Origin: a phage
Reading direction: 5' to 3' (one strand)
Length of the DNA: 64,000 bases
Sequence record: OZ346219.1
A model generated the notes under the pieces. It had not been told where the DNA came from. It did no database searches and worked only from the letters and a program-made list of their open reading frames with translations. The position numbers and the translations under genes are program-made. This document shows, piece by piece, positions 9,869-63,189 of this stretch. Each line of letters begins with the position of its first letter. Within the stretch, counting starts at the first letter, position 1.

Positions 9869-9882
9869 CCAGTTTTTAGAAA

Positions 9883-10143
9883 TTATTTTCGCCATTCACC
9901 TGAAACAATGAAGTTTGTAAAGTGATTGTGGTCCGTGATAATGTCATTAAGTACCATATGCGGATATGCTTTAGTGTAATCACGTTTACGATCAGTCATC
10001 CAACCAACGAAAGTCGGTGCAAAGTACGGCACACCGTCAGACGATGCCATATTAAACCCTTTGTCAGCCATAAATGCAGCCGCCCTAAGATTTTTAATTG
10101 AAGTAGTGCGACTAATTTCAAAAACTTTATCGGTAAAATTCAT
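9883..10143 (-). CDS. hypothetical protein (~86 aa; track ORF extends to 10164)
   Basis: ATG at 10143 lies just after the upstream stop with a G-rich RBS; the alternative start at 10164 overlaps the upstream gene. Confidence 0.4.
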   Translation of the reverse strand: MNFTDKVFEISRTTSIKNLRAAAFMADKGFNMASSDGVPYFAPTFVGWMTDRKRDYTKAYPHMVLNDIITDHNHFTNFIVSGEWRK

Positions 10144-10144
10144 T

Positions 10145-10354
10145 TTAAGCCCCCGCTCGTGCATTAATACGCATTTTCTGCATAGCCATGATCTGGCTTA
10201 CTGCTTCTTCTTTACGTTCTTGCGTGATAACGTGACCAGATTCCGCAAACTCTCCCGCAACTTCTTCTACAATCTCGCGAACTTGAGAACGTCCAAAGAT
10301 GCGGTTTCCTTCGTAGCTCATAAATTCAGTCACTACTTGCTCAATAGATTTCAT
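10145..10354 (-). CDS. hypothetical protein (69 aa)
   Basis: Preceded by promoter 10387-10415 and RBS AAGGGGAA. Confidence 0.45.
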   Translation of the reverse strand: MKSIEQVVTEFMSYEGNRIFGRSQVREIVEEVAGEFAESGHVITQERKEEAVSQIMAMQKMRINARAGA

Positions 10355-10415: not shown

Positions 10416-10422
10416 CTCGTTT

Positions 10423-10665
10423 TTAGAAATTTTTCGCTTCTTCTTCGGTCATCATAACCGCGCATTCGTGCATAACTTTGAAAACCGGATCAATCATGTC
10501 GAATGCTTCGCGGGACAGTTTACGAGAAGCGATTTTGATTGCTTCTACGTCTTCTACTACAGGAACAAAAACAGTTTTCAGTTCGTCGAGGACGGCAGCT
10601 TCTTTTTCATTCAGGAAGATCCCAGCGTCGTACAGTGCAACTTCGATAACATTAACTTTAACCAT
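10423..10665 (-). CDS. hypothetical protein (80 aa; start at MVKVNV...)
   Basis: RBS GGAGGA 7 nt upstream of the ATG at 10665; promoter 10699-10727 upstream. Confidence 0.45.
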   Translation of the reverse strand: MVKVNVIEVALYDAGIFLNEKEAAVLDELKTVFVPVVEDVEAIKIASRKLSREAFDMIDPVFKVMHECAVMMTEEEAKNF

Positions 10666-10698
10666 TTTTATTTCCTCCAGTTCGTTTCGGTATGGGAG

Positions 10699-10727
10699 TA
10701 TAATACTACCGATGACCTTTGGCGTCA
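10699..10727 (-). promoter_or_regulatory. early promoter TTGACG-17-TATTAT (degenerate palindrome copy)
   Basis: Minus strand: TTGACGccaaaggtcatcggtagTATTATactccc; overlaps the last codons of 10706-10930. Confidence 0.45.
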
Positions 10728-10930
10728 ACTAGTTTTTTGTTATTTTCGTGAAATTTTTTCGTCGCCTCATGTGCTTTTCGCTGGGCTTCTTGTTGTGCTT
10801 GCTGGCGTGCTGCCTCTTGCGATGCCATAACAGACGCATTTGCAGCAGTTACAGCCGCGACCATCGCTGCGGTATTAGCATTTACCGTACATGCACTAGC
10901 CAGCAAAGCAATCGCAATCATTTTCTTCAT
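10706..10930 (-). CDS. small secreted protein (74 aa), signal peptide plus Ala/Gln-rich region
   Basis: N-terminus MKKMIAIALLASACTVNA is signal-peptide-like; low-complexity body, so coding status is uncertain. Confidence 0.35.
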   Translation of the reverse strand: MKKMIAIALLASACTVNANTAAMVAAVTAANASVMASQEAARQQAQQEAQRKAHEATKKFHENNKKLVDAKGHR

Positions 10931-11166
10931 AGTTTCCCCTTTAGGTTATCTTCGACCTTCACCCATTCCGCGTATTCTTGCGCGGCTACTTTCGGATTTA
11001 GGCCATCTTCGTACATTGCATCAAGTAATTCTTTGTCGGTTGGCTTATACCCTAGATAAGCCTCCACCTGATTTTTCCAAATTTTATACCAGTTCATATT
11101 ATCACCAATCAAGAGCGCGTGTCCCTGCGTCTTCCCATGCTTGATCCATAACAGCCTTGAAAACAT
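10927..11166 (-). CDS. hypothetical protein (79 aa; possible internal start at 11097)
   Basis: Track ORF; the alternative ATG at 11097 directly follows the upstream stop. Confidence 0.4.
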   Translation of the reverse strand: MFSRLLWIKHGKTQGHALLIGDNMNWYKIWKNQVEAYLGYKPTDKELLDAMYEDGLNPKVAAQEYAEWVKVEDNLKGKL

Positions 11167-11374
11167 ATTCTAGAGTATCATCTTTAGAGAATCCGAAGAC
11201 TTTAGACGGAATATCTTCGATTGCTACTCCCGCAACTTCTGCATTACGCGCTTGGCAATAATGCAACTCTAAGTTATCGAGATAGCGACCGCCTAATTTC
11301 TCCATATCATCCCAGCATTTCCAGTAACCTACTTTATCTGCAATTGCCAACACTTTGCTGTTTTCGTTGTTCAT
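11102..11374 (-). CDS. hypothetical protein (90 aa; start at MNNENSKV...)
   Basis: Promoter 11396-11424 and RBS AGGAGA precede the ATG at 11374. Confidence 0.45.
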   Translation of the reverse strand: MNNENSKVLAIADKVGYWKCWDDMEKLGGRYLDNLELHYCQARNAEVAGVAIEDIPSKVFGFSKDDTLEYVFKAVMDQAWEDAGTRALDW

Positions 11375-11395
11375 CTTTGATTCTCCTTTTGTTTG

Positions 11396-11424
11396 GTATG
11401 GGTGTATTATGCAATGTTGGATTC
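11396..11424 (-). promoter_or_regulatory. early promoter TTGACT-17-CATAAT
   Basis: Minus strand: TTGACTtacagaatccaacattgCATAAT, followed by RBS and ATG. Confidence 0.45.
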
Positions 11425-11484
11425 TGTAAGTCAACAACTTTTTAAAATAAAAAAGCCGACCACACGGATCGGCTTAATAATCAG

Positions 11485-15675: not shown

Positions 15676-17784
15676 TTAAAATTTAACATTCTTAACCAGT
15701 TTCATAAAGTCTTGTGCGCGTTTGTCATTATGCAGAATACGATACCAGTTATCGACAATATCATACAGTAACGGGCTATTCTCTTTAAACTTCGCACAAA
15801 CTGCTTTAATTCGTTCGTTTGCTGCCGTGAATTTTTCATCACAGATCTTTTTAGTTTCTTCGTCCATAATCCAACGAGTACGAAGGAGTAACTTGGAAAC
15901 CTCTTTATTATAATGACGACCGTACAGTCTGTCAATAAATTCTGGAACACAGCGTTCTAGTTCATCGTCATGAAACAACATAGTGATCACACCCAGATAT
16001 TCGCCATACCCCAGATGATTGGTCTTAACCTTCTTAGCCAGACCAGCCAGCTTACCGCGAACAAATTCTAGCGCACATTCCAATTGTTCGTCAACGAGAT
16101 ATTTTTGTGTCTCATTACGGGTAATAATATACTTTGTTACCCCGAAGTAGTCAAGCGCCGTGTGTAATGTATTTTCATTATAGATCGATTGACGGCTACG
16201 GCTTTCGAATGCATCACCCACGCGGAACATGTGCAAGCCTGATAACTCGCGAATCTCTGCCGCTTTCATGTGATGGCTGGTTTTATGCCAACTGTCACCA
16301 ATCTTTTCCATGATATACACGTTAGGCAGCTTGGGAGTAGCTTCACGTTGTGTACGCTCGGTCTTTTCCGGTTTAACTGCTTTGGCACGCAGATCATCTG
16401 CCTCGGATACCTTAATCACGGTCATTTCAGATTCATCATAATACTGTTTGATGTACTCGAAAGTCTCCATATGTTTTTCGTTGCGCTGACGGAACACCAA
16501 TACCTTTTTATTGATTCCGTATTCCTGGACCATGCCGTTAAGAGTCAGTGCACGCAGTTTCGGTTTATCGGTATCATCAATAAGACACGTAATATCTTCT
16601 TTATGCATCCATACAAAATGCGTAATGTTGTATTGACTGCTAACGAAAGCAGGGCGCAATTTACTGATTGTGTGACGAGTACGATACAGAGTATACACCT
16701 GACCTTCTACGTCATTTGGCGAATCTTTACCCGCATTCACAAACTTATTATAGATTGCTACCGGATCATCCCACTGCCCGATCTTACCCATCTTGCTAAT
16801 AATATTGCGTTGAGTCGATGAATACTCGCTCATAAATTGCGCAAGTTTACGCTCTGTTTTAATGTTGGCGATCTTCTCTTTAACCTTTTCCAACATCATT
16901 TCATTGATTTCTGCAATGCGTTTTTCGATGTTCGCTTTAGTCTCAATTGACAAGTGAACTTCTTCACGCGATGGCATCAGGTCCAGATCACCCAACTCAA
17001 AATTAATGTAAATTGTCTGGTGCTGGCGGTTTACAGCTTCTAACCATGTTCCGCGAACATATTCATACGGGATCGGATACTGGATCTTACCCATGATTGC
17101 ATATACTACATAGGAATCGTTATCGCGCCCATTACACACATAATAATTATCAAAGCTAGGAAAATAATTAATTTCGATTGCGTTGATATTCGGTTTGTGT
17201 TCCCCAAAATGACGCAGTACAAATTGTGCTTCTCGATGCCATGTCTGAATGTCTTTTTCTTTCACCGGAATAGTGATTTTCAGACCATTGTCTTCATAGG
17301 TCGGTTCGTCGAAAATCTGCACCATTTTCGGCATAGAGTTTTGCACAAATGCAGTAAAGCCATAAGCGCGACCATTGTAGTAGTTTACGATTGTAAAGGT
17401 GTCAGTATAGCTATAAGCAGACTTCGCACCTAAACCAAAAGATCCGATATAATCATTAGTCTGGTCTTTTGTTGATTCAAAGTAAACCGTAAACAGTTGT
17501 TCTAATTCTTTCTTAGACGGAATACCCGTACCATAATCACGCACAGAAAAATACGGTTCGATTGCAGTCGGTAAATGAATATCAAACGGACGATCTAAGG
17601 TTCCGGCTTCTTTGTGAGTGTCGGTAGCATTGCACGAATACTCACGGACGCAAGCACGCTCACAATATTGATAAGTGTTCTTAGAAAGCACCATAAAAGC
17701 CTTGCTACTTGCTTTCAGTGAAAAATCAACCGCACCGCTCAAGTCACTGCCAAATACTTCTTCATTATCAATATGCATTTTCAT
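15676..17784 (-). CDS. rIIA: rIIA protein (702 aa)
   Basis: YFESTKDQTNDYIGSFGLGAKSAYSYTDTFTIVNYYNG matches recalled T4 rIIA (GHKL ATPase-like region); ATG with RBS GTGAGGA. Confidence 0.85.
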   Translation of the reverse strand: MKMHIDNEEVFGSDLSGAVDFSLKASSKAFMVLSKNTYQYCERACVREYSCNATDTHKEAGTLDRPFDIHLPTAIEPYFSVRDYGTGIPSKKELEQLFTVYFESTKDQTNDYIGSFGLGAKSAYSYTDTFTIVNYYNGRAYGFTAFVQNSMPKMVQIFDEPTYEDNGLKITIPVKEKDIQTWHREAQFVLRHFGEHKPNINAIEINYFPSFDNYYVCNGRDNDSYVVYAIMGKIQYPIPYEYVRGTWLEAVNRQHQTIYINFELGDLDLMPSREEVHLSIETKANIEKRIAEINEMMLEKVKEKIANIKTERKLAQFMSEYSSTQRNIISKMGKIGQWDDPVAIYNKFVNAGKDSPNDVEGQVYTLYRTRHTISKLRPAFVSSQYNITHFVWMHKEDITCLIDDTDKPKLRALTLNGMVQEYGINKKVLVFRQRNEKHMETFEYIKQYYDESEMTVIKVSEADDLRAKAVKPEKTERTQREATPKLPNVYIMEKIGDSWHKTSHHMKAAEIRELSGLHMFRVGDAFESRSRQSIYNENTLHTALDYFGVTKYIITRNETQKYLVDEQLECALEFVRGKLAGLAKKVKTNHLGYGEYLGVITMLFHDDELERCVPEFIDRLYGRHYNKEVSKLLLRTRWIMDEETKKICDEKFTAANERIKAVCAKFKENSPLLYDIVDNWYRILHNDKRAQDFMKLVKNVKF

Positions 17785-26730: not shown

Positions 26731-27285
26731 TCACCTCTCTTTATATCGTGATGTTCTGGTCTGACTCTTCCATATTCTTCTTATGGTTATCGTGTGCACT
26801 CCGTATATTATAGCAAGTTCTTTTACAGACGCAACACCCTGTTTAGACCTGATCTCTTCTACTTGATGGTCAGTTAACTTTGCGTTTCCGTGTGTTTCTC
26901 CATAGTTTTTGTTCAATCCTTCTTCTTTAGCGTGTATAAGATTTTCTCTTTGTGTTGTCCACTCAAGGCCATACAGATCAAAATCCTTTTTATCACCAAA
27001 TTTGTGATTTACTACAGGGTAGTTGTTTGGATTTGGTATAAATGCTTCTGCTAATGCCCTATGAATATAAACGCCGACGGTCTTTGGCTTGCCCGACTTT
27101 GTTCTGTTGGCGTAATCTCTTATATTACAAGAGACATAACCTTTTGTTATTTTAGTTGATCTGACCTTGCCAGTGGCTTTATTTCTTAGTTTACCATAAG
27201 AACTAATTTCATATTCTGGATACGATACGCCCATATAAACAAGGTCTTTCCATTCTTCTGGATGTTCATCACAATACCGTTTCAT
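26731..27285 (-). CDS. HNH homing endonuclease (NUMOD4-like N-terminus plus HNH_3-like core)
   Basis: W..L..GVSYPEYEISSYGKLRN (NUMOD4-type) and VNHKFGDKKDFDLYGLEWTTQREN (HNH-type) motifs. Confidence 0.7.
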   Translation of the reverse strand: MKRYCDEHPEEWKDLVYMGVSYPEYEISSYGKLRNKATGKVRSTKITKGYVSCNIRDYANRTKSGKPKTVGVYIHRALAEAFIPNPNNYPVVNHKFGDKKDFDLYGLEWTTQRENLIHAKEEGLNKNYGETHGNAKLTDHQVEEIRSKQGVASVKELAIIYGVHTITIRRIWKSQTRTSRYKER

Positions 27286-27300
27286 GATGTTATTAACCTC

Positions 27301-32032: not shown

Positions 32033-34711
32033 TTAAATGTCAAACAGGTCTGTAAGAGATGCCACTTTTTCATATTGCAGCTTTGCAGCCGTGGTAATGT
32101 TCTCCAGTGGTTTGACGAAAGTCTTATTAAACAACAAAGGCCAGTCCAACCACTTCAACACCTCTGATTCAATTTCTGGAGGAATACGAGTACCAGACAA
32201 CCAACCAAAACAGATTTCTCCAAACGGATTTCGATCTTTCAGCGGTACAATCATAACCTTCTCGCCTTCACGAATCGGATCTAGTCCGAATTTTCGAGCA
32301 TTACGATTATAACACAATACACTCTTAACCGCATATGGACAACCCTTAATCGGATACCCGTTTGAATCGCTGTATTTCTGTAGGTTGTTTGCAGATGATA
32401 CCGCAGCAACCTCAAGATAATCAAGTTTTCTAAATTCTTGCTCAAAAATACCGTAGTATTCCTGCAATGACTCTTCACCTTCCTGCAACATACGGCGAAT
32501 ACATTCTTTCAGTGATTTCTGACATGCTTTAGGGGTGGAGCTACGTTGCGTTTCCAAGCCCATGATTTTTAGCTTAGGTTCAGCAAAGCGCGTTCCTTCC
32601 ATATCCCAAACATTAAGAGCATAACGCTTTTTACCAGTCCAGAATCCACCGATACCCGCAGATTTCAATGGAGGACCAGCAATTGCCTCACGGTCCATAA
32701 ACATCAAGTGCTCATAGTTGTTCATGTACTCGCATAACTCGCGATATCCCTTGTCGATAATAGGTTCCATTCGATGTTTACCGAAATTATCAAGGAAGTC
32801 AACAAGTTTTTCGGTATCGTCGAAACGGTCTTCCCCGCCAACCTTATCAACAACATTGTTAACCAGCACATAAACGGAGTCAGTATCACAATAACGAACA
32901 TATGCAAAATCGGTTGTTCCACAAAGCTCGTTTAAGTATTCGTTAATCTTACGCTCAATCCACTGAATTGCAAGCTGACCAAACAAGGTGATCGCACTAG
33001 CGTTACGGAGATCATAAAAACGGAATTTAGGATTCCCCAACGCACCATAAAGGGAGTTGATCAAAACTTTACGAGAAAGCTGGTTTGTATTGCACAAGAT
33101 CGACTCGTCTTTACATTCTTCCAGCAATTTCTCTAAGGCATCTTTACTTAATTCAGAAAGCATCGATTTAAACGCTTCATCAAAGTCGTGACGCACTTCA
33201 ACGCTATAGTTAATGGTTCCTCCATAAACATGATTTTCATCGTGTAGAATCGCTTTACAGAGTTCAGCATTGCGATCACATGCCAACATCATGTTTTTGT
33301 ACTGCTTACGCTGATCGAATACCTTTTTAATCTCAATCGGTACGATACCGTGAATATCTTTTCTATACATCCATCCGTTAGGCGAGCAAGAATACTCATC
33401 ACTCGGACGTGGTGCAGTTTTATTGATATACTCGTGCATCGGTGCAGCATCAAAAGATCCAGCGATTGTTTCAGGCGAAATATTAACCTGTCGAATAATA
33501 GATGGGTACAGACTTGTTAAGTCAAAGCTCATCATCCAACGGTAAGCATTCGGCACAGGTTCTTTTACGAATGCGCCTGGATACGTCTGCTTAGGCTGTA
33601 TCTTATTTTCCGGTACTACTTTACCCTCAGCTTTCAGAGATCCGAAGATAATAGCATCCCATACTTTCATCGGGTTATAAACATGGTTAAATTTAATCTT
33701 TGCATAGAAACATAGACTATACACAAGATCGATAAATCCACGCTTTTTATCAATCGCCAGCACACGATCAACGTCGCCGATGTTATAATCGATGTAAAGT
33801 TGATGGTTGTCATCACGCAATTTCTTTAACGGACCATCATAATCAACCTTACCGATTCCTGTCTCATATTCAGCAACATAATCTAATGCATATGTTGGTT
33901 GAGTCGTAAAGCTAAATTTCTTGTACAGGTCAATATAATCAAGGCTTTCGATCCCCATGATCGTAAATGCTTCACGCTCGTTGCCAAAATCATCCTGTGA
34001 GATTCGGGATTTAATCTTACCGCACGGGCTTAGACGGTTAGCGGTTCTACTTCCGAACTTATTACTGATACGTTTAATGATATATGGAATATCGAATGTT
34101 TCTGTGTTCCAGCCAGTGAAACCAACGGGTCGGTTTTCCTCAAAGAATCGGATGTATTCTAACAGCAATTCATCTTCTGTGTCATAGACGTTATAAACAA
34201 CGCGCTCTACAATATCAGGTCGAAGAATAGACTTGCTTGCTTCCCAGATTTCACCGTTTTTTCCTTTCAAATCAAATACAAAGAAACGATCATGTACGGA
34301 ATCATAATGCGTAATTGCATCGATAGGATATTTCGCTTCTTCTGGTTTAGGAAATTCCGGTGCAGTGACCTCGATATCAACCCATGCTACACGGATTTTA
34401 TTTCGGTCATATCGAATCTCGCCTTTATATGTATCGGACAGATAGGAGATGATAAAATCATCCATCCCTAGTGCCTCCTGCCCCATTTCTCCCATCTTTT
34501 TACGCCATTTGTTGGCCTCGTTCATAGAGGGGAATTTTTTAGCAATGCAAGGCTTGCCATAGATATCTTTATAATTCGTAACCATACCAGGCGCGGCATG
34601 ATGAAATAAAGTTGGCGTATATTCAACGTAACGCTCTTGTTCTTGTCCAGCATCATCAATATAACGCTCGTAGATCTTATCACCTACTCGCTCACATGAC
34701 AGAAAATACAT
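32033..34711 (-). CDS. gp43: DNA polymerase gp43 (family B)
   Basis: ERYIDDAGQ, exonuclease region, SFDLTSLYPSIIRQVNISPET, INSLYGALGN, YCDTDSVYV match T4 gp43; start set to the ATG at 34711 with RBS AAGGAG. Confidence 0.9.
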   Translation of the reverse strand: MYFLSCERVGDKIYERYIDDAGQEQERYVEYTPTLFHHAAPGMVTNYKDIYGKPCIAKKFPSMNEANKWRKKMGEMGQEALGMDDFIISYLSDTYKGEIRYDRNKIRVAWVDIEVTAPEFPKPEEAKYPIDAITHYDSVHDRFFVFDLKGKNGEIWEASKSILRPDIVERVVYNVYDTEDELLLEYIRFFEENRPVGFTGWNTETFDIPYIIKRISNKFGSRTANRLSPCGKIKSRISQDDFGNEREAFTIMGIESLDYIDLYKKFSFTTQPTYALDYVAEYETGIGKVDYDGPLKKLRDDNHQLYIDYNIGDVDRVLAIDKKRGFIDLVYSLCFYAKIKFNHVYNPMKVWDAIIFGSLKAEGKVVPENKIQPKQTYPGAFVKEPVPNAYRWMMSFDLTSLYPSIIRQVNISPETIAGSFDAAPMHEYINKTAPRPSDEYSCSPNGWMYRKDIHGIVPIEIKKVFDQRKQYKNMMLACDRNAELCKAILHDENHVYGGTINYSVEVRHDFDEAFKSMLSELSKDALEKLLEECKDESILCNTNQLSRKVLINSLYGALGNPKFRFYDLRNASAITLFGQLAIQWIERKINEYLNELCGTTDFAYVRYCDTDSVYVLVNNVVDKVGGEDRFDDTEKLVDFLDNFGKHRMEPIIDKGYRELCEYMNNYEHLMFMDREAIAGPPLKSAGIGGFWTGKKRYALNVWDMEGTRFAEPKLKIMGLETQRSSTPKACQKSLKECIRRMLQEGEESLQEYYGIFEQEFRKLDYLEVAAVSSANNLQKYSDSNGYPIKGCPYAVKSVLCYNRNARKFGLDPIREGEKVMIVPLKDRNPFGEICFGWLSGTRIPPEIESEVLKWLDWPLLFNKTFVKPLENITTAAKLQYEKVASLTDLFDI

Positions 34712-41578: not shown

Positions 41579-42604
41579 CTAACTTTTTGCGCTATTTACC
41601 TCGGCTAAAAGTTCATCAGAAATACGCTTGACCGCCGCAAGTTCTTCCGGTTCTAGGTTTTGTTCTTCCAGATATTCATAGACCATCTGAATAGTGCTTT
41701 TAACTTCAATAACACCTGTTTCCTGTGATGCGCTACTCTCCAGCTTATGGACCACTTTTAGCTTGTGTACAACGGCCTCTAAAGCGCTTTCTAACTTAGT
41801 TAACCCATTATCAGCGACCGTTGCGATAAGACGCACACTAAGCCCCTTAAAGCGTTCTACATCGATTTTATCATCTGACGGGTAAGTGATACGCACATGA
41901 TAAGTTTTGTCATTCTGGATAAACTCCTTTTTGTGTGTATCGGTATCGAATACCCAAAAACCACGCGGATCGTTTTCGTCACCAGCCGTTAGTGTGTATG
42001 GTGTACCAATATACGTTACGTTACCGCCATCACTGATAGTATGAAAGTGACCAGAAAACACTTCACGGTATTTCTTGAGGAAGTCCGCGCTATAACCTTC
42101 TGATTTTAGACCTTTATAGAAATAGTAACCGGACAATTCCCAATGGCCTACACAATATTCGCTGAATGAGTTTTGAATAAACTCTAAAATCTCTGATTTA
42201 TTGTCATCACAAAACCACGGGAACAGATCAAATGATACACCATCAAAGGTGACTGTTTCCGGTTTATCGATAACCTTAATGCAATCATACTGGCTTAACA
42301 CTTCACGCGGTGCGTTAGGCTGGATCTTGTTTCGTTTAAACATATCATGGTTCCCGACCGTGATATAACAAGTAATTCCAGCCTCTTCCAGTAATGGGAT
42401 GACCTTAGTACGGTTAAATTTCATGGTTTCATGGGTAATTGCTTTTCGGCAATCAAACCAATCCCCTGTTTGAATCCATGTCTTAATATTATGCTCTTTG
42501 GAGTATTCAACCGCCTTCTTGATGGTATCAAGAATATACTCATGCACCCACGGATCATCGCCACCGATACCAGTATGCAGATCACCTAAAAGCAAAATTT
42601 TCAT
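41579..42604 (-). CDS. gp47: recombination endonuclease subunit gp47 (SbcD/Mre11-like)
   Basis: MKILLLGDLHTG...TWIQTGDWFD...VGNHD...FSGHFHT are calcineurin-like phosphoesterase motifs matching T4 gp47. Confidence 0.85.
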   Translation of the reverse strand: MKILLLGDLHTGIGGDDPWVHEYILDTIKKAVEYSKEHNIKTWIQTGDWFDCRKAITHETMKFNRTKVIPLLEEAGITCYITVGNHDMFKRNKIQPNAPREVLSQYDCIKVIDKPETVTFDGVSFDLFPWFCDDNKSEILEFIQNSFSEYCVGHWELSGYYFYKGLKSEGYSADFLKKYREVFSGHFHTISDGGNVTYIGTPYTLTAGDENDPRGFWVFDTDTHKKEFIQNDKTYHVRITYPSDDKIDVERFKGLSVRLIATVADNGLTKLESALEAVVHKLKVVHKLESSASQETGVIEVKSTIQMVYEYLEEQNLEPEELAAVKRISDELLAEVNSAKS

Positions 42605-42694
42605 AGTCTCTTCCTCTCTTCGTTTTCGATGCTCTCACTATATCACAGAAAAATAAAAAGGGAAACCCCTTTCAGAGTCTCCCCTATAAAGCCA

Positions 42695-45244: not shown

Positions 45245-45549
45245 TAGAAACCCTTACGTCGTTCTTTCTGGCATTTCTTGATCATTTTATCAGAAATTTC
45301 GCGCTTAGGTGCAATCTCTTTCACACCGAAAGCACTAATGCCAAATTCAGAGAGAATATATTCAACCAACAATTCACGCACACGCGCTTTACCGATATTC
45401 ACGCCGTTATTTTTCAGATATGTCTGGCCTTCGACTTGCATCAGATCTAAATCTGCGTCGGTAATATTGATTTCTTCCATGCGCCCAAATCGAGAATAAA
45501 CCATGTGTGCGATTGCATTGTGTACTAACATAATATATTCCTCACTCAA
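45244..45549 (-). CDS. hypothetical protein (101 aa), translationally coupled to the NTPase
   Basis: Its stop overlaps the NTPase start codon. Confidence 0.45.
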   Translation of the reverse strand: MSEEYIMLVHNAIAHMVYSRFGRMEEINITDADLDLMQVEGQTYLKNNGVNIGKARVRELLVEYILSEFGISAFGVKEIAPKREISDKMIKKCQKERRKGF

Positions 45550-46467: not shown

Positions 46468-47269
46468 TCAAAAATTCAACTTCACGACGTTTAATGTCTT
46501 CTTGAAGGTCTTTAATCTTCTGGCGATCTTGCATTATTTCGTCCATCTTGTCAAGTGCTGCGATGAAATCATCGAAACGTTCAAAGGTTTTACCTTCATT
46601 TGCTTCGCTAAATTTAACCATTGTCAGGCCATAACGACTACTAAACAGACGTTTCAACTGTCCAACGATCTTAGAATCAGTGGTTATAACTTCCAATTCT
46701 TCTACTTCACGAAAGAATTTTCTATCAGAATCAATAAACCAGCTAGTTCCTTTATGGTCGCTATCTTCGGTTGCACTCATTAGAGTATGGTCTTTACCAT
46801 CAATTTCAATTACATTAACTTGCCCACATAGACTAACATTTTTAACAGTAAAAGGTCTATAATTTATTGCTCGTGCAATAACATAATTAAGGTTAGATAC
46901 GTTTTCAGCATAATGACAGAAGTCGGTCATAGCATTCGCATCTTTCCAAGTATAAGTTTTACCAACTTCCCATTTCTGGGGAACTTCTTCAACTTCACGA
47001 AAGAATTTTCGATCGAATGGACTAAAGAAATATGTTGCAGTCCAAATGTCTTTTCCTGTAGCAGTTTTCGCCGTATGATAAACACCGTCTAGCTCTATTG
47101 CATTAATCCAACCGTTACCCTCGATCTCGATGATGGTAAATGGCTTGTCACCAATAGCTGCACTAATATCGCTGTTAAGTGGAGAAAGAACACCTTCTCC
47201 GTTAGTAATAAACTCAGTTTTAGAGTTTTCATCTTTCCAAGTGTAAGTTTTACCAATTTCCCATTTCAT
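46445..47269 (-). CDS. hypothetical protein with internally duplicated W-E-(I/V)-G-K-T-Y-T-W-K-D domain (274 aa)
   Basis: MKWEIGKTYTWKDENSKTEF... and ...QKWEVGKTYTWKDANAMTDF..., each followed by PFT(I/V), IEIDG and RKFFREVEE. Confidence 0.5.
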   Translation of the reverse strand: MKWEIGKTYTWKDENSKTEFITNGEGVLSPLNSDISAAIGDKPFTIIEIEGNGWINAIELDGVYHTAKTATGKDIWTATYFFSPFDRKFFREVEEVPQKWEVGKTYTWKDANAMTDFCHYAENVSNLNYVIARAINYRPFTVKNVSLCGQVNVIEIDGKDHTLMSATEDSDHKGTSWFIDSDRKFFREVEELEVITTDSKIVGQLKRLFSSRYGLTMVKFSEANEGKTFERFDDFIAALDKMDEIMQDRQKIKDLQEDIKRREVEFLIGKERGW

Positions 47270-47281
47270 AATATATTCCCC

Positions 47282-47761
47282 TTAACCGATTTTATCAAGT
47301 TCGTTTAATGCTTTCTCTGCTTCCGGTATAGCTTGCACCCTTTCCGGCATTTTGTCAAGAAAATCTTTCAACTCTTCAAAACTGGAGATATGACGCAAGG
47401 CATTAGCACCGATAGCCGCATGTGATTTGCATTCAAAGCGAATTTTATAATTATCCATAGCCAATTTGAGAAGATCAATTAGTTTAGATTCTTCTGGAAT
47501 AATAATTTCTTCAAATCTGCTACGGTCGTGACACAGAAACCAACAATATAGACCTACATCGGTTGAACTCATATAAGTTCCATCATGAAGATATACAGAT
47601 CGCACGTATCCTTTTTTCGCATCAACCGACGCAACTTTAAACGGTAATCTCAGATATTTCAAATAATCAACATCATACCATTTAAAAAATTGTTTTGCAT
47701 CTTTTACATCTTTCCACGCATAGGTCTTACCAACTTCCCATTTCATAATATCATCTCTCAT
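47282..47761 (-). CDS. hypothetical protein, W-E-V-G-K-T-Y family paralog (159 aa)
   Basis: MKWEVGKTYAWKDVKDAKQFF at the N-terminus. Confidence 0.5.
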   Translation of the reverse strand: MRDDIMKWEVGKTYAWKDVKDAKQFFKWYDVDYLKYLRLPFKVASVDAKKGYVRSVYLHDGTYMSSTDVGLYCWFLCHDRSRFEEIIIPEESKLIDLLKLAMDNYKIRFECKSHAAIGANALRHISSFEELKDFLDKMPERVQAIPEAEKALNELDKIG

Positions 47762-48287
47762 TTTTGATACGTGATTCTAATTGGATCATACGGTCGCGCG
47801 TTTGCTTATATTCTCGGATAGCACCGATCCGGCTAGGCATACCATCCAGTACGCTCTTAATACCTTCTAGGGTAGTGATTTTAGCAATGCTATTATGTAA
47901 CCCCATCTTATCGATCAACTGAATGTCGTAGGCTTCCATAAGCAGACCCAGGAGTTCTAAAGTTAGGTCTTCTTCTTTTTCTTCCGATTCTGGAATCTTA
48001 GGTTCAATAGTAACTTCGGTAAAGAAACGACGCTCACCAGACCAAAACCACACACCGGAACAGCCAATAGGGGATTCTTTTAACGTCATAGAGTCGTAAC
48101 CACTTCCGATAATAGTAATTTCTCTAACATCACCATCATCGTCAATGTCTTCTACCATAAACGGGCGACCAGCCAACAGGTCCACAATACATCTGTTAAT
48201 AGACGACGAAAATTTAGTCAGTTCGGCTTTCGACGCTTCACATTCAATCTTGTAAGTTTTACCAACTTCCCATTCCATAATAATCAC
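47751..48287 (-). CDS. hypothetical protein, W-E-V-G-K-T-Y family paralog (178 aa)
   Basis: MEWEVGKTYKIECEASKAEL at the N-terminus; RRFFTEV motif. Confidence 0.5.
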   Translation of the reverse strand: MIIMEWEVGKTYKIECEASKAELTKFSSSINRCIVDLLAGRPFMVEDIDDDGDVREITIIGSGYDSMTLKESPIGCSGVWFWSGERRFFTEVTIEPKIPESEEKEEDLTLELLGLLMEAYDIQLIDKMGLHNSIAKITTLEGIKSVLDGMPSRIGAIREYKQTRDRMIQLESRIKNER

Positions 48288-49009: not shown

Positions 49010-49558
49010 TTATTTTAAATTTTTTCGAATGTAGTCAGACCATTCCTTCCCTGTCAGTTCGGTCCCATTCTGGAAACTGAAATATTCATACGGCATCGAG
49101 TCAAGATAAAACAGGATCATACATCGCGCCATATAATACCAATCACGATTAAAGTAAACTACGTTATCGCCAGTACCATCAGCACCTTTATCATAACCAT
49201 CGCGGGTACGGGCGACCCATTGAATAGTATCATTTTTCTCACGGATCGTAACAGGTTCCCAATATCCAGCACATCCAGCATGACCACACGAACAAGTAAG
49301 GAAATATTGTCCTTTTGCTTTGTTGTCGTCCCATTCACGATGGATTGGTTCGATCTCGTGAAACAGTGCTAAGCAATCATGATTATGCAACACTGGCTTA
49401 CCATCAATCAATGCATGGAATGTATACAAACGACCCGTAGACAAATAGCTATCCTCACGCTCAACCAGTTCAATAGCAATCTTTTTAGCTCGTTCTTTGT
49501 GTCGTTGTGCTTTACGCTTACGGTTTAATGATTTCATATTCACCTCACACATTATCAA
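49010..49558 (-). CDS. hypothetical protein (182 aa)
   Basis: Track ORF between nrdG and nrdD, where T4 has mobC. Confidence 0.45.
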   Translation of the reverse strand: MIMCEVNMKSLNRKRKAQRHKERAKKIAIELVEREDSYLSTGRLYTFHALIDGKPVLHNHDCLALFHEIEPIHREWDDNKAKGQYFLTCSCGHAGCAGYWEPVTIREKNDTIQWVARTRDGYDKGADGTGDNVVYFNRDWYYMARCMILFYLDSMPYEYFSFQNGTELTGKEWSDYIRKNLK

Positions 49559-50094
49559 AGGTCGCGATATAGTACATTATGAAAATGAGAACTTGCATTA
49601 CCAATATTGTAGATAATAAATTCTTCATCCGGCGCTTGCGCTACAAATTGAGTATGAGCAACCGCCACAACCTTAAAAATACGATCCGTGATCTTGTGTT
49701 TAATTTCTGCCCCTACTTCCATAGGAACATATTCATTTGTTTCTGTTTCAGTCGCAAAACAGCCATCTTCTTCATAAGCACGAACAAATCGATCGCAATC
49801 AGTACGCTTAACAAATTCAAGAGTATACAATTCTCGTGAATTGTCGGTATAGACCAATACAGAATTATTATGATAGCGAATCACATACAGGTTATTATCA
49901 TCGTCAATTACGCAAAAGCTACGGATTCCTTCGCCTTTACTCCAGCAGATATTAACCACCGTTCCTCTAATAAAAAAACTTTCCTTTAAATTAAAACTAG
50001 TCAATGTGCTAGCGTGCATTTTAACAACAACACCATCGCCAATTTCCAGTTTACGAAGTTTAACTTCTTTGTTCAGTACACAAAACATCATCAT
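49555..50094 (-). CDS. hypothetical protein (179 aa)
   Basis: Track ORF preceded by promoter 50124-50151 and RBS. Confidence 0.45.
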   Translation of the reverse strand: MMMFCVLNKEVKLRKLEIGDGVVVKMHASTLTSFNLKESFFIRGTVVNICWSKGEGIRSFCVIDDDNNLYVIRYHNNSVLVYTDNSRELYTLEFVKRTDCDRFVRAYEEDGCFATETETNEYVPMEVGAEIKHKITDRIFKVVAVAHTQFVAQAPDEEFIIYNIGNASSHFHNVLYRDL

Positions 50095-50123
50095 GTTGTC
50101 CTCTCGTTGTTTTCGATGTGAGC

Positions 50124-50151
50124 ATTATACATTAGCTAATCATGTTGTCAA
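50124..50151 (-). promoter_or_regulatory. early promoter TTGACA-16-TATAAT
   Basis: Minus strand: TTGACAacatgattagctaatgTATAAT, directly downstream of the nrdD terminator. Confidence 0.55.
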
Positions 50152-50189
50152 CACCCCAAAACGAAAAAGCCGACCCTTTCGGATCGGCT
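50152..50189 (-). terminator. rho-independent terminator after nrdD (AGCCGATCC-gaaa-GGGTCGGCT plus U-run)
   Basis: 9-bp stem with one mismatch followed on the minus strand by TTTTTCGTTTTGG. Confidence 0.6.
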
Positions 50190-50194
50190 GAAAT

Positions 50195-52101: not shown

Positions 52102-52596
52102 TTATTTTACCAGTTCTGCTAATTCTTTTTCTTTAGCTTCTAGTTCAGCTTTAAGCTGTTTAATCTCTTGTCGCTTCTTATTAGCGGCTTCCTGCTTACT
52201 ATTTCGGATAACCTGATCTAGATACAACTCCCAATCCTGAATATTTTTGATAATGTATCCGTCAACATTAATTGGTCGGAGATTCAGTACAGCTTCCAGT
52301 TTAGTCGCAAAAACTTTAATTGCTGGCGTGAAGTATTCATATTCGTTATCTTCAAACCAATAACCTAGACTTGCATTATCAATACGAAGACGAAGTTCAA
52401 GATCAAGGTCTTTATCTTCGGTGTAAAGATCTTTCACCTGACCCAGCGAACTAACAACAACTTTAAAACGAATTTTATCTACACCACCAAACACATCAGT
52501 AAGTATACCAGCAATTGAGCTATTAGCGCAAGATTGGTCGCTGAATGCGTCAAGGTTTTCTTTAGTTACAGTATACCAAACATCTTGTACCCACAT
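52102..52596 (-). CDS. hypothetical protein (164 aa), coiled-coil C-terminus
   Basis: Track ORF with promoter 52628-52656 upstream. Confidence 0.45.
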   Translation of the reverse strand: MWVQDVWYTVTKENLDAFSDQSCANSSIAGILTDVFGGVDKIRFKVVVSSLGQVKDLYTEDKDLDLELRLRIDNASLGYWFEDNEYEYFTPAIKVFATKLEAVLNLRPINVDGYIIKNIQDWELYLDQVIRNSKQEAANKKRQEIKQLKAELEAKEKELAELVK

Positions 52597-52627
52597 AATA
52601 TAATCCTCTCGTTGTTTAGATGGGAGT

Positions 52628-52656
52628 ATCTTACTACTCCCGTTTCATCATGTCAA
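52628..52656 (-). promoter_or_regulatory. early promoter TTGACA-17-TAAGAT with GGGAGTA/TACTCCC palindrome
   Basis: Minus strand: TTGACAtgatgaaacgggagtagTAAGATactccc; the -35 overlaps the upstream stop codon. Confidence 0.5.
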
Positions 52657-53237
52657 GCGTTAAATGACTTTTGGATCTCTTTCAGTTCAGCTACTTTATC
52701 GGCGCTGAATTTAGCGTAGGTATCATGTCGAATAATTTCACTTTCAAGAAAGGTTTCCAGCCGAGATCTATTTTCAATAAGGAACTCTTTCAGGTCTTCC
52801 GCGTTCTTGATAAAGATTTTATTGTCGGTAATGTCATCTTCAATCGCAAAGGAGATAGAGCGAACTTTACCAAACAAGTTAATCAGATCTTCCAGAGATT
52901 CTTCTTTCTTAACTGGTTTCATTTCTTCAAACTGCTTTTTAGTGATGCGTTTAAAGTATTTGCGCTCGCTTGCATCAATCATGATTGACGCACCCTCATA
53001 ATCATGAGTTTCTACCAAATACACTTTACCCATAACATTAACCGTAAGAACTTTAAAGCCCCTGTGAAGCACACCATACAGGAACTTGTTATGTTGTGGG
53101 TAGCGTTTAACAAATTCCTCTGCGGACTCAGCATTACGGAAAGTGTAATAACGACCTCGTTCAAAAACAGCATCAGTTGAAGACTTAACCGGATACAATT
53201 TATACGTTTTCTGTACCATAATATAATCCTCTATCAT
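52653..53237 (-). CDS. hypothetical protein (194 aa)
   Basis: Track ORF. Confidence 0.45.
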   Translation of the reverse strand: MIEDYIMVQKTYKLYPVKSSTDAVFERGRYYTFRNAESAEEFVKRYPQHNKFLYGVLHRGFKVLTVNVMGKVYLVETHDYEGASIMIDASERKYFKRITKKQFEEMKPVKKEESLEDLINLFGKVRSISFAIEDDITDNKIFIKNAEDLKEFLIENRSRLETFLESEIIRHDTYAKFSADKVAELKEIQKSFNA

Positions 53238-58045: not shown

Positions 58046-58299
58046 AGTTTCCTCAACCAGTTATTAAAGCTAGCAAACCATGATGCTTTTCGTGCTTCTT
58101 TTACTTTATGTGCACGTAAACCACTGAAACACCATTCATAATCATCACTGAAACATGATTCAACAGGAACACCCGCATTTCGTAGTTCTCTGGTCTTTAT
58201 CATGAATCCTTGACATAATGGGCGACCTTCAACAATGATAGGAAGTTTAACTTTTTCCATGAAAGTATACCCAGCACGGTCAATAATTTCAATCTTCAT
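58042..58299 (-). CDS. hypothetical protein (85 aa), MKIEIID family paralog
   Basis: MKIEIIDRAGYTFMEKVKLPIIVEGR... is shared with 58318-58515 and, more distantly, 60632-60853. Confidence 0.45.
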   Translation of the reverse strand: MKIEIIDRAGYTFMEKVKLPIIVEGRPLCQGFMIKTRELRNAGVPVESCFSDDYEWCFSGLRAHKVKEARKASWFASFNNWLRKL

Positions 58300-58317: not shown

Positions 58318-58515
58318 TTATACCGCCCAGGCTTCATTTGCACGAAAACACCATTCATATTCAGGAAAATAACCTTTAATTGGTACGCCAGCTTTTTGTA
58401 GTTCCTGCGTTTCTACAAGATAATCAAGCCCATAACGACGACCTTCCACGATGATAGGAAGTTTAACGCCATTCATGAAAGAAAATCCACCGTCATCAAT
58501 AATTTCAATTTTCAT
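58318..58515 (-). CDS. hypothetical protein (65 aa), MKIEIID family paralog
   Basis: MKIEIIDDGGFSFMNGVKLPIIVEGR...QELQKAGVP. Confidence 0.45.
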   Translation of the reverse strand: MKIEIIDDGGFSFMNGVKLPIIVEGRRYGLDYLVETQELQKAGVPIKGYFPEYEWCFRANEAWAV

Positions 58516-59437: not shown

Positions 59438-59699
59438 TACATGCTTTTAATGCATCGGTCGCGGTGTCATAGCGAGTATTATCATAGCACCAATAACCAT
59501 CTGTCAACTGATAAATTAATCCATCCTTTTTAGCTTCGATGAAAGATAACTCTTTGAAAGTTTCTACTTTCTTTGCTGATAATCCACGGTCACGGCGCTT
59601 ATAGAGTTTAGCCAAAATGCGTTCAGCTTGTTCCTCTTTATCACCAGACAGATCCCAGATGATGTTTCGGATATGCTTGATTAATTGTTCAGTGGTCAT
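59409..59699 (-). CDS. hypothetical protein (96 aa)
   Basis: Promoter 59729-59756 and RBS AAGGAGA upstream. Confidence 0.45.
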   Translation of the reverse strand: MTTEQLIKHIRNIIWDLSGDKEEQAERILAKLYKRRDRGLSAKKVETFKELSFIEAKKDGLIYQLTDGYWCYDNTRYDTATDALKACNDHLRKTTI

Positions 59700-59728
59700 C
59701 TTTGATTCTCCTTAGTTGGTATGCGTGC

Positions 59729-59756
59729 ATTATAGCATTGTGATTATCTTTGTCAA
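59729..59756 (-). promoter_or_regulatory. early promoter TTGACA-16-TATAAT
   Basis: Minus strand: TTGACAaagataatcacaatgcTATAAT. Confidence 0.55.
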
Positions 59757-59792
59757 CACCCAAAAACAAAAAAGGCTACCCCGAAGGATAGC
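59757..59792 (-). terminator. rho-independent terminator after the gp38-like gene (GGCTATCC-ttcg-GGGTAGCC plus U-run)
   Basis: Hairpin followed on the minus strand by TTTTTTGTTTTTGGG; same architecture as 50152-50189 and 62165-62200. Confidence 0.55.
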
Positions 59793-59800
59793 CCATAAAA

Positions 59801-60577
59801 TTACACGCGAGCACCGTAGATCGTGCCTACTTTATCCCAGCGAGGGGCATTACCAGTAACAGCTTTACCCGCAGCACCACCGTTATATTCTGTACCGTTC
59901 CCCTGAGTATTACATCTTCCTCCAGCAGCACCAACGTTACCGCCCGCACCACCTGTATATGCACTAAGAGACCCCTTACCAACAGATCCTTTACCCGGAG
60001 CGGAAATGGAGCCAGCGGTTGCACCAGAACCCATATTAGAGGAAGACCCGGCAGCACCGAATGGGCGACCACCGCCGCCACCAAATACTAGTCGACCCCT
60101 GTTACCGCCGCCACCGCCACCACCGCCGCCAGCGATAGCACCGTTATTTGTAATTCGTAGACGTGTACCGATAGCGTTATTGATTGCGTTTCCACCAGCA
60201 GCGCCAGCAGCGTTACTACCACCATTACCCCCACGTCCGTAGACAGTCACACCGGAGTTAATGATCAATGTTACATATTCGTTTGTTAACGAGCTAGGGA
60301 AGTCAAGACAAGGAACGCCAGTAGATTGGGAAACAATATTACCTGTGATAGTAATTACTACCGGAGTAGATCCTTGTGCTTTCATCCAGTTAATAAGAGT
60401 GTCTTTATTGTAAGAGTTACTAGCACCAATGCTATAATGAATCTCTTTAGAACGTCCGACCATTGCTGACATATACGCCGGACGACCTAAGCGAACAGCT
60501 TGCATTGCGGCGCTCATCCACCGTTGACCAGTCTCGGACACAGCAGATGATCCTACCCATCCAGAAGATATTGCCAT
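59801..60577 (-). CDS. glycine-rich protein resembling the T2/S16-type gp38 tail-fibre adhesin (258 aa)
   Basis: N-terminus SSGWVGSSAVSETGQRWMSAAMQAVRLG then repeated poly-Gly motifs (GRGGNGGSN, GGGGGGGGGNRG, FGGGGGRPFGAAG) separated by short variable segments; assignment from recalled family features only. Confidence 0.5.
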   Translation of the reverse strand: MAISSGWVGSSAVSETGQRWMSAAMQAVRLGRPAYMSAMVGRSKEIHYSIGASNSYNKDTLINWMKAQGSTPVVITITGNIVSQSTGVPCLDFPSSLTNEYVTLIINSGVTVYGRGGNGGSNAAGAAGGNAINNAIGTRLRITNNGAIAGGGGGGGGGNRGRLVFGGGGGRPFGAAGSSSNMGSGATAGSISAPGKGSVGKGSLSAYTGGAGGNVGAAGGRCNTQGNGTEYNGGAAGKAVTGNAPRWDKVGTIYGARV

Positions 60578-60581
60578 AAAA

Positions 60582-60613
60582 TTTCCTCACAAGAAAAGCC
60601 CCAATTAAGGGGC
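60582..60613 (-). terminator. stem-loop GCCCC-ttaatt-GGGGC plus U-run immediately upstream of the gp38-like ATG
   Basis: 5-bp GC stem followed on the minus strand by TTTTCTTG, RBS GAGGAAA and ATG. Confidence 0.4.
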
Positions 60614-61907: not shown

Positions 61908-62106
61908 TCTTCACGGTCTCCATAATGGTTTTGTAAGCCAGTTTAAGATGATCACCGAAAAACTTTGCGGTGTTACCCTTCGGATCGCGGAGCATGGTTT
62001 CTACGATCTCATCGGCAGCAACAATTTCTCCTTTCTTTGCTGCATGTTCTACCATATACTTCAAAGTTTCTTCGGAAGCAAGTGCTGCGGCTACTGGATT
62101 AATCAT
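61897..62106 (-). CDS. hypothetical protein (69 aa)
   Basis: Promoter 62136-62164 and RBS AAGGAGA upstream. Confidence 0.4.
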   Translation of the reverse strand: MINPVAAALASEETLKYMVEHAAKKGEIVAADEIVETMLRDPKGNTAKFFGDHLKLAYKTIMETVKNAK

Positions 62107-62135
62107 TTTGATTCTCCTTTGTTGTCGATGTGTGC

Positions 62136-62164
62136 ATTATGATATACCCTATTCCGGTTGTCAA
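62136..62164 (-). promoter_or_regulatory. early promoter TTGACA-17-CATAAT
   Basis: Minus strand: TTGACAaccggaatagggtatatCATAAT. Confidence 0.5.
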
Positions 62165-62200
62165 CACCTAAAAACGAAAAAGCCACCCTTTCGGATGGCT
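62165..62200 (-). terminator. stem-loop AGCCATCC-gaaa-GGGTGGCT with U-run; near-duplicate of the nrdD terminator
   Basis: Close copy of the 50152-50189 element (aaaacgaaaaagcc...ccctttcgga...ggct). Confidence 0.55.
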
Positions 62201-62433
62201 TTTGATTATATTTTATTCACGTCCATTTGTATAGTAGTGTTTGAATCGACCTTTGCTAAACTAGTTAAACATAGTAACCAATTCACCATCCCTTTCCAAT
62301 GATAACCCTTCCTCGTCTTAGACGGGTCTTCCGATTCGGCAGTAATTGAACACGCGAAAGTATGAGGAAGCCAAATAGTTGTGTTAATGCTAGTATTCTT
62401 TTACTTCTGGTATGCATCCCACGGTGACTAACA

Positions 62434-63121: not shown

Positions 63122-63189
63122 AAGTCATTCCCCCAGATTTAAAATATTCAGTTATATTTATAATCTGGGGCTTTATTTATGATTAACTC

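Follow-up and report, generated by a model that had tools for sequence, protein, structure and literature searches.

Predicted terminator-promoter cassettes of a Krischvirus genome: an upstream-hairpin subclass of promoter-early stem-loops at the borders of gene modules

Introduction

Promoter-early stem-loops (PeSLs) were defined in the coliphages RB49 and phi1 by Arbiol, Comeau, Kutateladze, Adamia and Krisch (Genome Biol Evol 2:140; Arbiol et al., 2010, PMC2839356), and the work was extended by Comeau et al. (2014, PMC4122927). They are composite units, about 50 per genome and conserved over about 100 bp, in which an AT-rich stretch, a sigma-70-like early promoter and a stem-loop lie between an upstream stop codon and the SD and ATG of the downstream gene. 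The stem-loop can take five positions, one of which is described as "upstream of the -35 box." PeSLs concentrate in hyperplastic regions, upstream of ORFans; known genes are rarely found with them, nrdD being one of the few. Promoter and terminator activity has been shown for PeSL211/210, 206/205 and 193/192, and PeSL mini-circles (the ORFan192 and ORFan210 circles) have been reported. Recombination between PeSLs, mini-circles included, was proposed as a driver of modular shuffling (Arbiol et al., 2010).

Signals of this kind had been annotated in RB49 before PeSLs were named. At the RB49 orthologs of the three cassettes that we call A, B and C, Nolan et al. (2006; PMC1524935, additional files 3 and 6) placed terminators at 34499-34518, 45339-45360 and 47750-47767, paired with the early promoters Pe:34495, Pe:45336 and Pe:47746, respectively. 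These TransTerm terminators have a score of 100 and lie 3-4 nt upstream of the early promoter. Mapped 5' ends fit the early-promoter consensus of RB49, in which -12 is T or C (Nolan et al., 2006).

Here we describe cassettes A, B and C, together with a more divergent fourth copy, D, in a stretch of 64,000 nucleotides of phage DNA (record OZ346219.1), which is referred to throughout as the window. The window is from a Krischvirus: its nrdD is 99.9% identical to that of Escherichia phage kaaroe and 98.6% identical to that of RB49, and identity with RB49 is 96.9% across the whole 15 kb compared. An earlier note on this DNA had described A, B and C as near-identical units that move or recombine and may have carried adjacent ORFs with them. 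The class of element is already known, and the note amounts to its rediscovery in the genus where PeSLs were defined.

Anatomy of the cassettes

Cassettes A, B and C have one layout in common. When they are aligned on the minus strand, each runs from a stop codon through a G+C hairpin, a T-run and the motif (G/A)GGTG to TTGACA. The downstream half continues with a spacer of 16-17 nt, (T/C)ATAAT, a leader, an SD and an ATG. The units fully occupy their intergenic spaces, being bounded by the stop codon on one side and the SD/start codon on the other. The hairpins are of 9-11 bp, with free energies of -14.7 to -16.6 kcal/mol and z values of -2.6 to -4.3, and all three are held in the register -38 to -17 relative to the -35 hexamer.

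Cassette A (50095-50194, minus strand, as are all the cassettes) fills the intergenic gap from the nrdD stop to the start of ORF055 (49555-50094, minus), an ORFan predicted to be driven by it. Its hairpin is at 50168-50189 (AGCCGATCC-GAAA-GGGTCGGCT; dG -16.6, z -2.6) and its T-run at 50156-50167. The predicted promoter consists of the -35 TTGACA (50146-50151), a 16-nt spacer and the -10 TATAAT (50124-50129), and is followed by the SD GAGAGGA and the ATG at 50092-50094.

Cassette B (59700-59800) reaches from the gp38 stop to the start of ORF078. Here the hairpin, at 59773-59794, has a different loop (GGGCTATCC-TTCG-GGGTAGCCT; dG -14.7, z -3.1), and is followed by a T-run, TTGACA at 59751-59756, again a 16-nt spacer, TATAAT at 59729-59734, the SD AAGGAGA and the ATG at 59697-59699. 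Cassette C (62107-62210) lies upstream of ORF084, directly after the rI.-1 region. In its hairpin (62178-62203; AAAAGCCATCC-GAAA-GGGTGGCTTTT; dG -16.6, z -4.3) the A-tract pairs with the T-tract. The -35 is TTGACA (62159-62164), the spacer has 17 nt, the -10 is CATAAT (62136-62141), and the SD AAGGAGA precedes the ATG at 62104-62106.

Copy D (11375-11484) is of the same subclass and matches A, B and C at E of 1e-3 to 1e-5. It has a hairpin at 11452-11475 (AAGCCGATC-CGTGT-GGTCGGCTT), a T-run, the -35 TTGACT (11429-11434), the -10 CATAAT (11406-11411), an SD and an ATG at 11372-11374.

The three units are thus present where the earlier note had put them, and it was right in placing one after nrdD and another after gp38. 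The sequence string that it gave does identify the units, but as a plus-strand reading it is the reverse complement of the functional orientation, the cassettes and the genes being on the minus strand. In a blind consensus scan the promoters of A, B and C score 12/12, 12/12 and 11/12, and in the same scan the three sites are the best terminator-like sites of the minus strand within 44-64 kb. Each bears the usual mark of an intrinsic terminator: behind a gene, and on the strand that is transcribed, a G+C-rich hairpin leads directly into a U-tract. The GenBank record of GEC-3S annotates a terminator and a promoter at all three orthologous sites. The motif scans, the pairing-preserving hairpin variants described below, the GEC-3S record and the annotation of Nolan et al. 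(2006) all agree with the proposal that the units are terminator-promoter pairs.

Judged by sequence, A, B, C and D are PeSLs, and belong to the subclass with the stem-loop upstream of the -35 box. In A, B and C we find a consensus promoter, a stem-loop, the intergenic bounds and the ORFan/nrdD setting that characterize PeSLs. The likeness extends to the many dispersed copies, the conservation over about 100 bp and the indels or replacements bounded by PeSLs.

Conservation of the hairpin

The hairpin is under selection. All 13 distinct variants found among orthologs and paralogs fold alike, and each substitution keeps the pairing. (Pairs were tabulated from individual folds, the stem of copy C being one pair shorter and mis-gapped by MAFFT.) The paralogs differ by three compensatory swaps that alter both sides of a pair, and by one paired deletion. 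The orthologs have four changes on one side only, which interchange G.U and Watson-Crick pairs, and no pair is broken. A G.U wobble at one stem position is common to all four window copies, the stem AGCC(G)ATCC...GG(G)T(C)GGCT is common to A, C and D, and A, B and C have tetraloops, either GAAA or UUCG. The kept pairing, the wobble and the tetraloops point to a function at the RNA level, that of a terminator, and suggest that A, C and D, at least, have a common origin.

A similar hairpin is found on the other strand. The late-strand terminator hairpin after gene 35 (873-895, plus; AAGCCGATCCATGTGGTCGGCTT) is identical at 22 of 23 positions to the hairpin of copy D (11452-11475, minus). Each of the two follows its own direction of transcription, so that both RNAs keep the G.U wobble. 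The hairpin is therefore a dispersed module that does not depend on the early promoter.

Similarity among the copies

The copies are related, as the earlier note had it, but near-identity is not borne out: identity over the core is 79% between A and C, 74% between A and B and only 64% between B and C. Relatedness was assessed by a leave-one-out similarity test, in which each single copy was used as the sole query against the window (nhmmer E-values). Each of A, B and C finds the other two as its top non-self matches in the window, with E of about 1e-10 for A-C and about 1e-6 for A-B and B-C. Generic early promoters score behind them, at 1e-3 or worse. Identity among the three copies is therefore above that of other promoters rather than at the generic level, and a comparison of the window with itself likewise recovers them as a dispersed repeat family (D5).

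The similarity is not evenly distributed along the unit. In the 16 nt before the -35, each of the three pairs has 88% identity; among the other gene-linked promoters the same stretch averages 39% and reaches 69% at most. A, B and C are also alone among the strong sigma-70 sites in having a hairpin upstream of the -35 in one register. The leader of A, B and C, CATCGA.AAC...AAGGAGAATCAAAATG, is common to many other early promoters in the window, so that likeness in the leader and SD is a family-wide trait of many promoters. The hairpin half of B, when taken alone, is marginally similar to A and C (E 0.02-0.6), and part of the likeness could accordingly be due to functional convergence.

The early-promoter family and its distribution

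Cassettes A, B and C are part of a larger family of early promoters. In a relaxed census of the 64-kb window, 19 sigma-70 promoters are linked to genes, and every one of them is on the minus strand. Hairpins accompany 14 of them and fall into recurrent sequence subfamilies; in four the hairpin is upstream of the -35. An unbiased self-comparison returned these units as the three largest dispersed repeat families of the window, D1 (6 copies), D2 (5 copies) and D5 (A, B and C). Sigma-70 consensus matches of at least 11/12 in the window are likewise confined to the minus strand (27 of 27); several of them are inside coding regions (e.g., at 15935, 17893, 29607 and 38622). Translation-initiation regions of the GAGGATTATATTATG type recur as families D4, D6 and D8, and a tandem paralogous family of small genes downstream of nrdG (46697-48276; the ORF048-051 region of RB49) gives families D3 and D16.

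The flanking ORFs, ORF055, ORF078 and ORF084 among them, matched no family in a Pfam search, and the RB49 orthologs of these three are annotated as hypothetical proteins. Rfam, searched over the whole window at gathering thresholds, gave zero family matches. An exact-pattern scan of IMG/VR for the hairpin/-35 linker returned two matches, both on a single contig of 164,706 bp, and no new contexts.

The A/B/C subclass was found only in 59 Krischvirus records, with 3-4 copies per genome at orthologous sites. Such fixed positions in 59 genomes suggest that exchange is rare.

A transposon or MITE was considered and rejected: in addition to the fixed orthologous sites, there are no terminal inverted repeats and no target-site duplications. 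The sole inverted repeat of A, B and C is the terminator hairpin, and the flanks are not duplicated. Of the proposal that the cassettes move or recombine, recombination is upheld by the breakpoints and mosaics at the cassettes that are described next, and transposition is not, given the fixed sites.

Recombination at cassettes A, B and C

Comparison of the window with eight relatives, region by region, places the boundaries of indels and swaps of flanking genes at cassettes A and B. In FL15 and G2248, a module of 909 bp is missing that comprises a weak terminator, gp38 and the hairpin, -35 and spacer of cassette B. At the cassette B site these two phages have a PeSL of a different subclass, TTGACA-CGGGGAGAAATCCCCG-TATAAT, and their homology with the window restarts at the -10 box/leader of cassette B (breakpoint 59723). 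The left edge of the module is a stop codon, with no recognisable PeSL there. The gp38 adhesin gene (59801-60577, minus), which has its own weak terminator upstream (60598-60613), is thus the cargo of a variable module bounded by cassette B. In kvi there is no gp38 at the cassette B locus; a gp38 homolog with 68% identity is found on the late strand, in the canonical order g37-g38-dc5-t (L013 3980-4759).

In the window gp38, which encodes a late-function adhesin, is located in an early-gene hyperplastic region between the weak terminator and cassette B. A search for the T4-type late promoter TATAAATA gave none near gp38. There are only two in the window, at 1025 (plus) and 63155 (minus), and the nearest on the strand of gp38 (63155-63162) is upstream of two terminators. 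The central part of gp38 (59881-60112) differs from that of kaaroe. In gene 37, which encodes the distal tail fibre, the segment 3760-4380 has no megablast match to RB49; this is a host-range hypervariable region.

At cassette A, the variable gene is ORF055. JK32 has a divergent allele (48-82% identity, between flanks of 96-100%) that is bounded on its upstream side by cassette A, and the JSE allele is partly divergent. Cassette A itself is mosaic in these phages: that of JK32 (L006 2644-2693) has a C-type T-run/-35 segment, GTTTTTAGGTGTTGACAACC, and that of JSE (L005 2150-2199) a C-type AACCGGA patch in the spacer. These A/C mosaics point to gene conversion, the two paralogous cassettes lying 12 kb from each other. 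Both the presence or absence of the gp38 module and the ORF055 swap in JK32 support the idea that the cassettes carried adjacent ORFs with them, which is in essence the published PeSL model.

The situation at cassette C is different. An allele of a 712-aa gene in JK32 diverges right up to the cassette C hairpin. A cassette-mediated indel upstream of C in the window and RB49 was considered and discarded, since the apparent spacer is the remnant of the 712-aa gene after an internal deletion. In this remnant (62213-62412), about 120 nt of the 5' end, with the start ATG changed to ATA, and about 39 nt of the 3' end survive. The ORF is intact in G2248 (L008 14862-17006) and JK32 and matches no Pfam family.

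Loss of frd.2 and other indels

The window differs from its relatives in the loss of frd.2 (1179 nt, goF-like), a gene present in 59 of 59 Krischvirus records and flanked in RB49 and kaaroe by two similar PeSLs. What is left in the window is a chimeric PeSL of another subclass (52597-52652, minus; block overlap 52594-52658), in which the hairpin GGGAGTAGTAAGATACTCCC overlaps the -10. The chimera matches the upstream unit through the ATG and then runs on as the downstream gene, which places the crossover inside a 23-nt identical leader/SD/ATG block, AACAACGAGAGGATTATATTATG, of the flanking PeSLs. As far as a junction sequence can tell, this shows recombination between two PeSLs in the window genome itself. 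The junction was found in 0 of the 59 Krischvirus records, and a relative that retains both parental PeSLs is 99.6% identical across the nrdD-side flank. The loss could be a genuine natural deletion mediated by PeSLs or an assembly collapse or error. A sub-threshold match of frd.2 to RecT in Pfam was disregarded.

When the window is compared with RB49, all three indels that do not involve homing endonucleases adjoin a PeSL. Two insertions are specific to the window in this comparison, one at 9869-10152 (a single ORF of about 86 aa) and the other at 10416-10940 (two ORFs of about 74 and 80 aa); one of these ORFs has a signal-peptide-like N-terminus. Each insertion has the upstream stop codon on one side and, on the other, the AT-rich/-35 edge of a PeSL, and each ends with the motif AAAA(T)TTTCTAAAAAC.

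Indels in which PeSLs have no role are of three kinds: homing endonucleases, a crossover between the paralogs ORF073 and ORF074, and the internal deletion of the 712-aa gene. ORF073 and ORF074 are in tandem and have a 77-nt repeat in common (58223-58299 and 58439-58515, 79% identical). ORF074 is missing from JSE, JK32, FL15 and G2248, which is consistent with unequal crossover between the paralogs and not at cassettes. As to endonucleases, an ORF that appears endonuclease-like by eye, from its translation, lies between gp61 and ORF017 (26738-27291), and the RB49 HNH gene ORF040c is missing in the window (at about 42601-42605). In GEC-3S an HNH gene separates nrdC from dam (L004 8095-8850), and in JSE nrdD is split by a homing endonuclease (L005 3336-3857).

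Proposed mechanism and its alternatives

We favor the view that PeSLs are at once a terminator, an early promoter and a recombination linker, and put its probability at about 0.85 overall. The regulatory part we would rate higher than this, and the recombination role of the A, B and C copies somewhat lower. The anatomy of the cassettes, the selection on their hairpins, their dispersal and the breakpoints that fall on them are plain from the comparisons above. We infer termination and initiation at the A, B and C sites, as well as the pathway of recombination.

The hairpin in the RNA, a stem of 9-11 bp closed by a GAAA or UUCG tetraloop, would act with the U-tract to terminate the upstream early transcript on the minus strand. 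About 16 nt further on, the consensus sigma-70 promoter would restart transcription by way of unmodified host RNA polymerase, and the new transcript would serve the small ORFan that follows, with its strong SD. The T-tract of the terminator, at about -41 to -52, may double as an UP-like A/T element, and this would explain why the register of the hairpin is fixed. With termination and restart in each unit, each module would be transcriptionally autonomous.

Similar stretches of 60-110 bp are repeated in many of the intergenic spaces, and for this reason PeSLs may also act as short homology patches or "linkers" for the homologous recombination machinery of the phage. The genes uvsX, gp46/47 and gp49 are encoded in the window. 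By exchange at the patches, self-contained gene modules would be lost, gained or replaced by another allele. The sites of crossover vary (the leader, the -10 box, an AT-rich stretch), which favors homologous over site-specific exchange.

A simpler proposal would be that A, B and C are independent terminators and consensus promoters that came to look alike because strong signals do, with no role in recombination. The -35, the -10, the SD and much of the leader are indeed common to many early promoters of the window, the T-run can be explained by function, the hairpin half of B matches A and C at E of only 0.02-0.6, and the positions are stable across the 59 genomes. Regulatory convergence does not, however, account for a linker before the -35 that is 88% identical as against 39% in other promoters, for a single hairpin register, or for a G.U wobble at the same stem position in A-D and a stem common to A, C and D. 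Full-length queries with single copies give E of 1e-6 to 1e-10, cassette A of JK32 and of JSE is mosaic for A and C, and breakpoints fall at cassettes A and B. We consider convergence unlikely as the whole explanation. The copies might instead be relics of segmental duplication, left when whole segments, each a gene with its regulatory region, were copied in tandem and the genes then diverged; the cassettes would in that case not be linkers. This is hard to reconcile with a similarity among A, B and C that ends at the downstream ATG and the upstream stop codon, with neighbors that differ (nrdD, gp38 and the rI.-1 region; ORF055, ORF078 and ORF084), with distances of 2.4 to 50 kb between copies and with the same hairpin on the opposite strand after gene 35. 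Duplication is plausible for the frd.2 paralog cluster: the PeSLs around frd.2 sit among goF-like paralogs, ORF057 and frd.2 are both VOG4723 in the kaaroe record, and RefSeq gives a goF-match naming to both genes (frd.2/ORF059). Tandem paralog families are found at 46.9-48.3 kb and in ORF073/074 as well. As an account of the cassettes, it appears highly improbable.

The reading that we find least probable of all is that the hairpins are integron attC-like sites, recognised by a phage protein that excises and inserts mini-circles of a PeSL plus an ORF. The frd.2 crossover is in the 23-nt leader/SD/ATG block, away from the hairpin; the gp38 breakpoint is at the -10 box/leader; and the window-specific insertions adjoin an AT-rich stretch. 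Junction positions that vary in this way are what homology-driven exchange predicts, and the tetraloops and strand-specific G.U wobbles indicate a function in RNA. The idea was raised by Arbiol et al. (2010), who reported the mini-circles, and it is in keeping with hairpins that belong to a few discrete, conserved sequence families, yet the annotation of the orthologous RB49 regions, where many ORFs are uncharacterised, has neither an integrase nor a recombinase. It is also very unlikely, if slightly less so than duplication, that the upstream-hairpin subclass (A-D and the gene 35 hairpin) is a module that is actively copied or targeted by a phage factor, making integron-like PeSL+ORF cassettes. 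If it were, the frd.2-less window genome would be a fresh natural product of that system.

We return to the preferred reading of PeSLs as terminators, early promoters and linkers for homologous exchange. If the published model is true, PeSLs let T4-type phages shuffle accessory genes while leaving transcription units unbroken. The host-range adhesin gp38 is among the genes shuffled, and the model therefore bears on the evolution of host range and on phage therapy. The window adds nothing new in kind; it provides extra examples in the frd.2 deletion, the gp38 boundary inside cassette B and the A/C mosaic of JK32.

Comparison with known systems

The terminator and promoter pairs described here are orthologous to ones that Nolan et al. 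(2006) annotated in RB49. Terminators and promoters were treated there as separate signals, and neither the repetition of the pairs nor a role in recombination was remarked upon.

Self-contained gene modules with their own promoter and terminator are also known as the morons of lambdoid phages (Hendrix et al., 2000), and the arrangement of weak terminator, gp38 and cassette B resembles a moron. Morons often deviate in G+C content and orientation, whereas here it is the regulatory unit itself that would provide the homology for exchange. The "linker" sequences of Botstein and Campbell, from the theory of modular phage evolution, are like PeSLs in being short conserved intergenic sequences that target the homologous exchange of neighboring modules. 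The elements at the internal-protein loci of T-even phages (Repoila et al., 1994) are PeSL-like, but have T4-type early promoters and weak AT-rich hairpins. They are considered analogs of PeSLs and not homologs (Arbiol et al., 2010).

The closest system remains the PeSLs of RB49 and phi1. Cassettes A, B and C are like them in genus, layout, location in hyperplastic regions, the company of ORFans and nrdD, and the association with indels that separate close relatives. The loss of frd.2, the boundary of the gp38 module and the JK32 mosaic are seen here and are absent from Arbiol et al. (2010). That paper stresses GGGG...CCCC stems that lie between the promoter boxes or overlap them, whereas A, B and C represent the rarer subclass with the hairpin upstream. 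This subclass resembles a classical intrinsic terminator with its U-tract, and in nothing essential does it differ from the PeSLs as they were first described.
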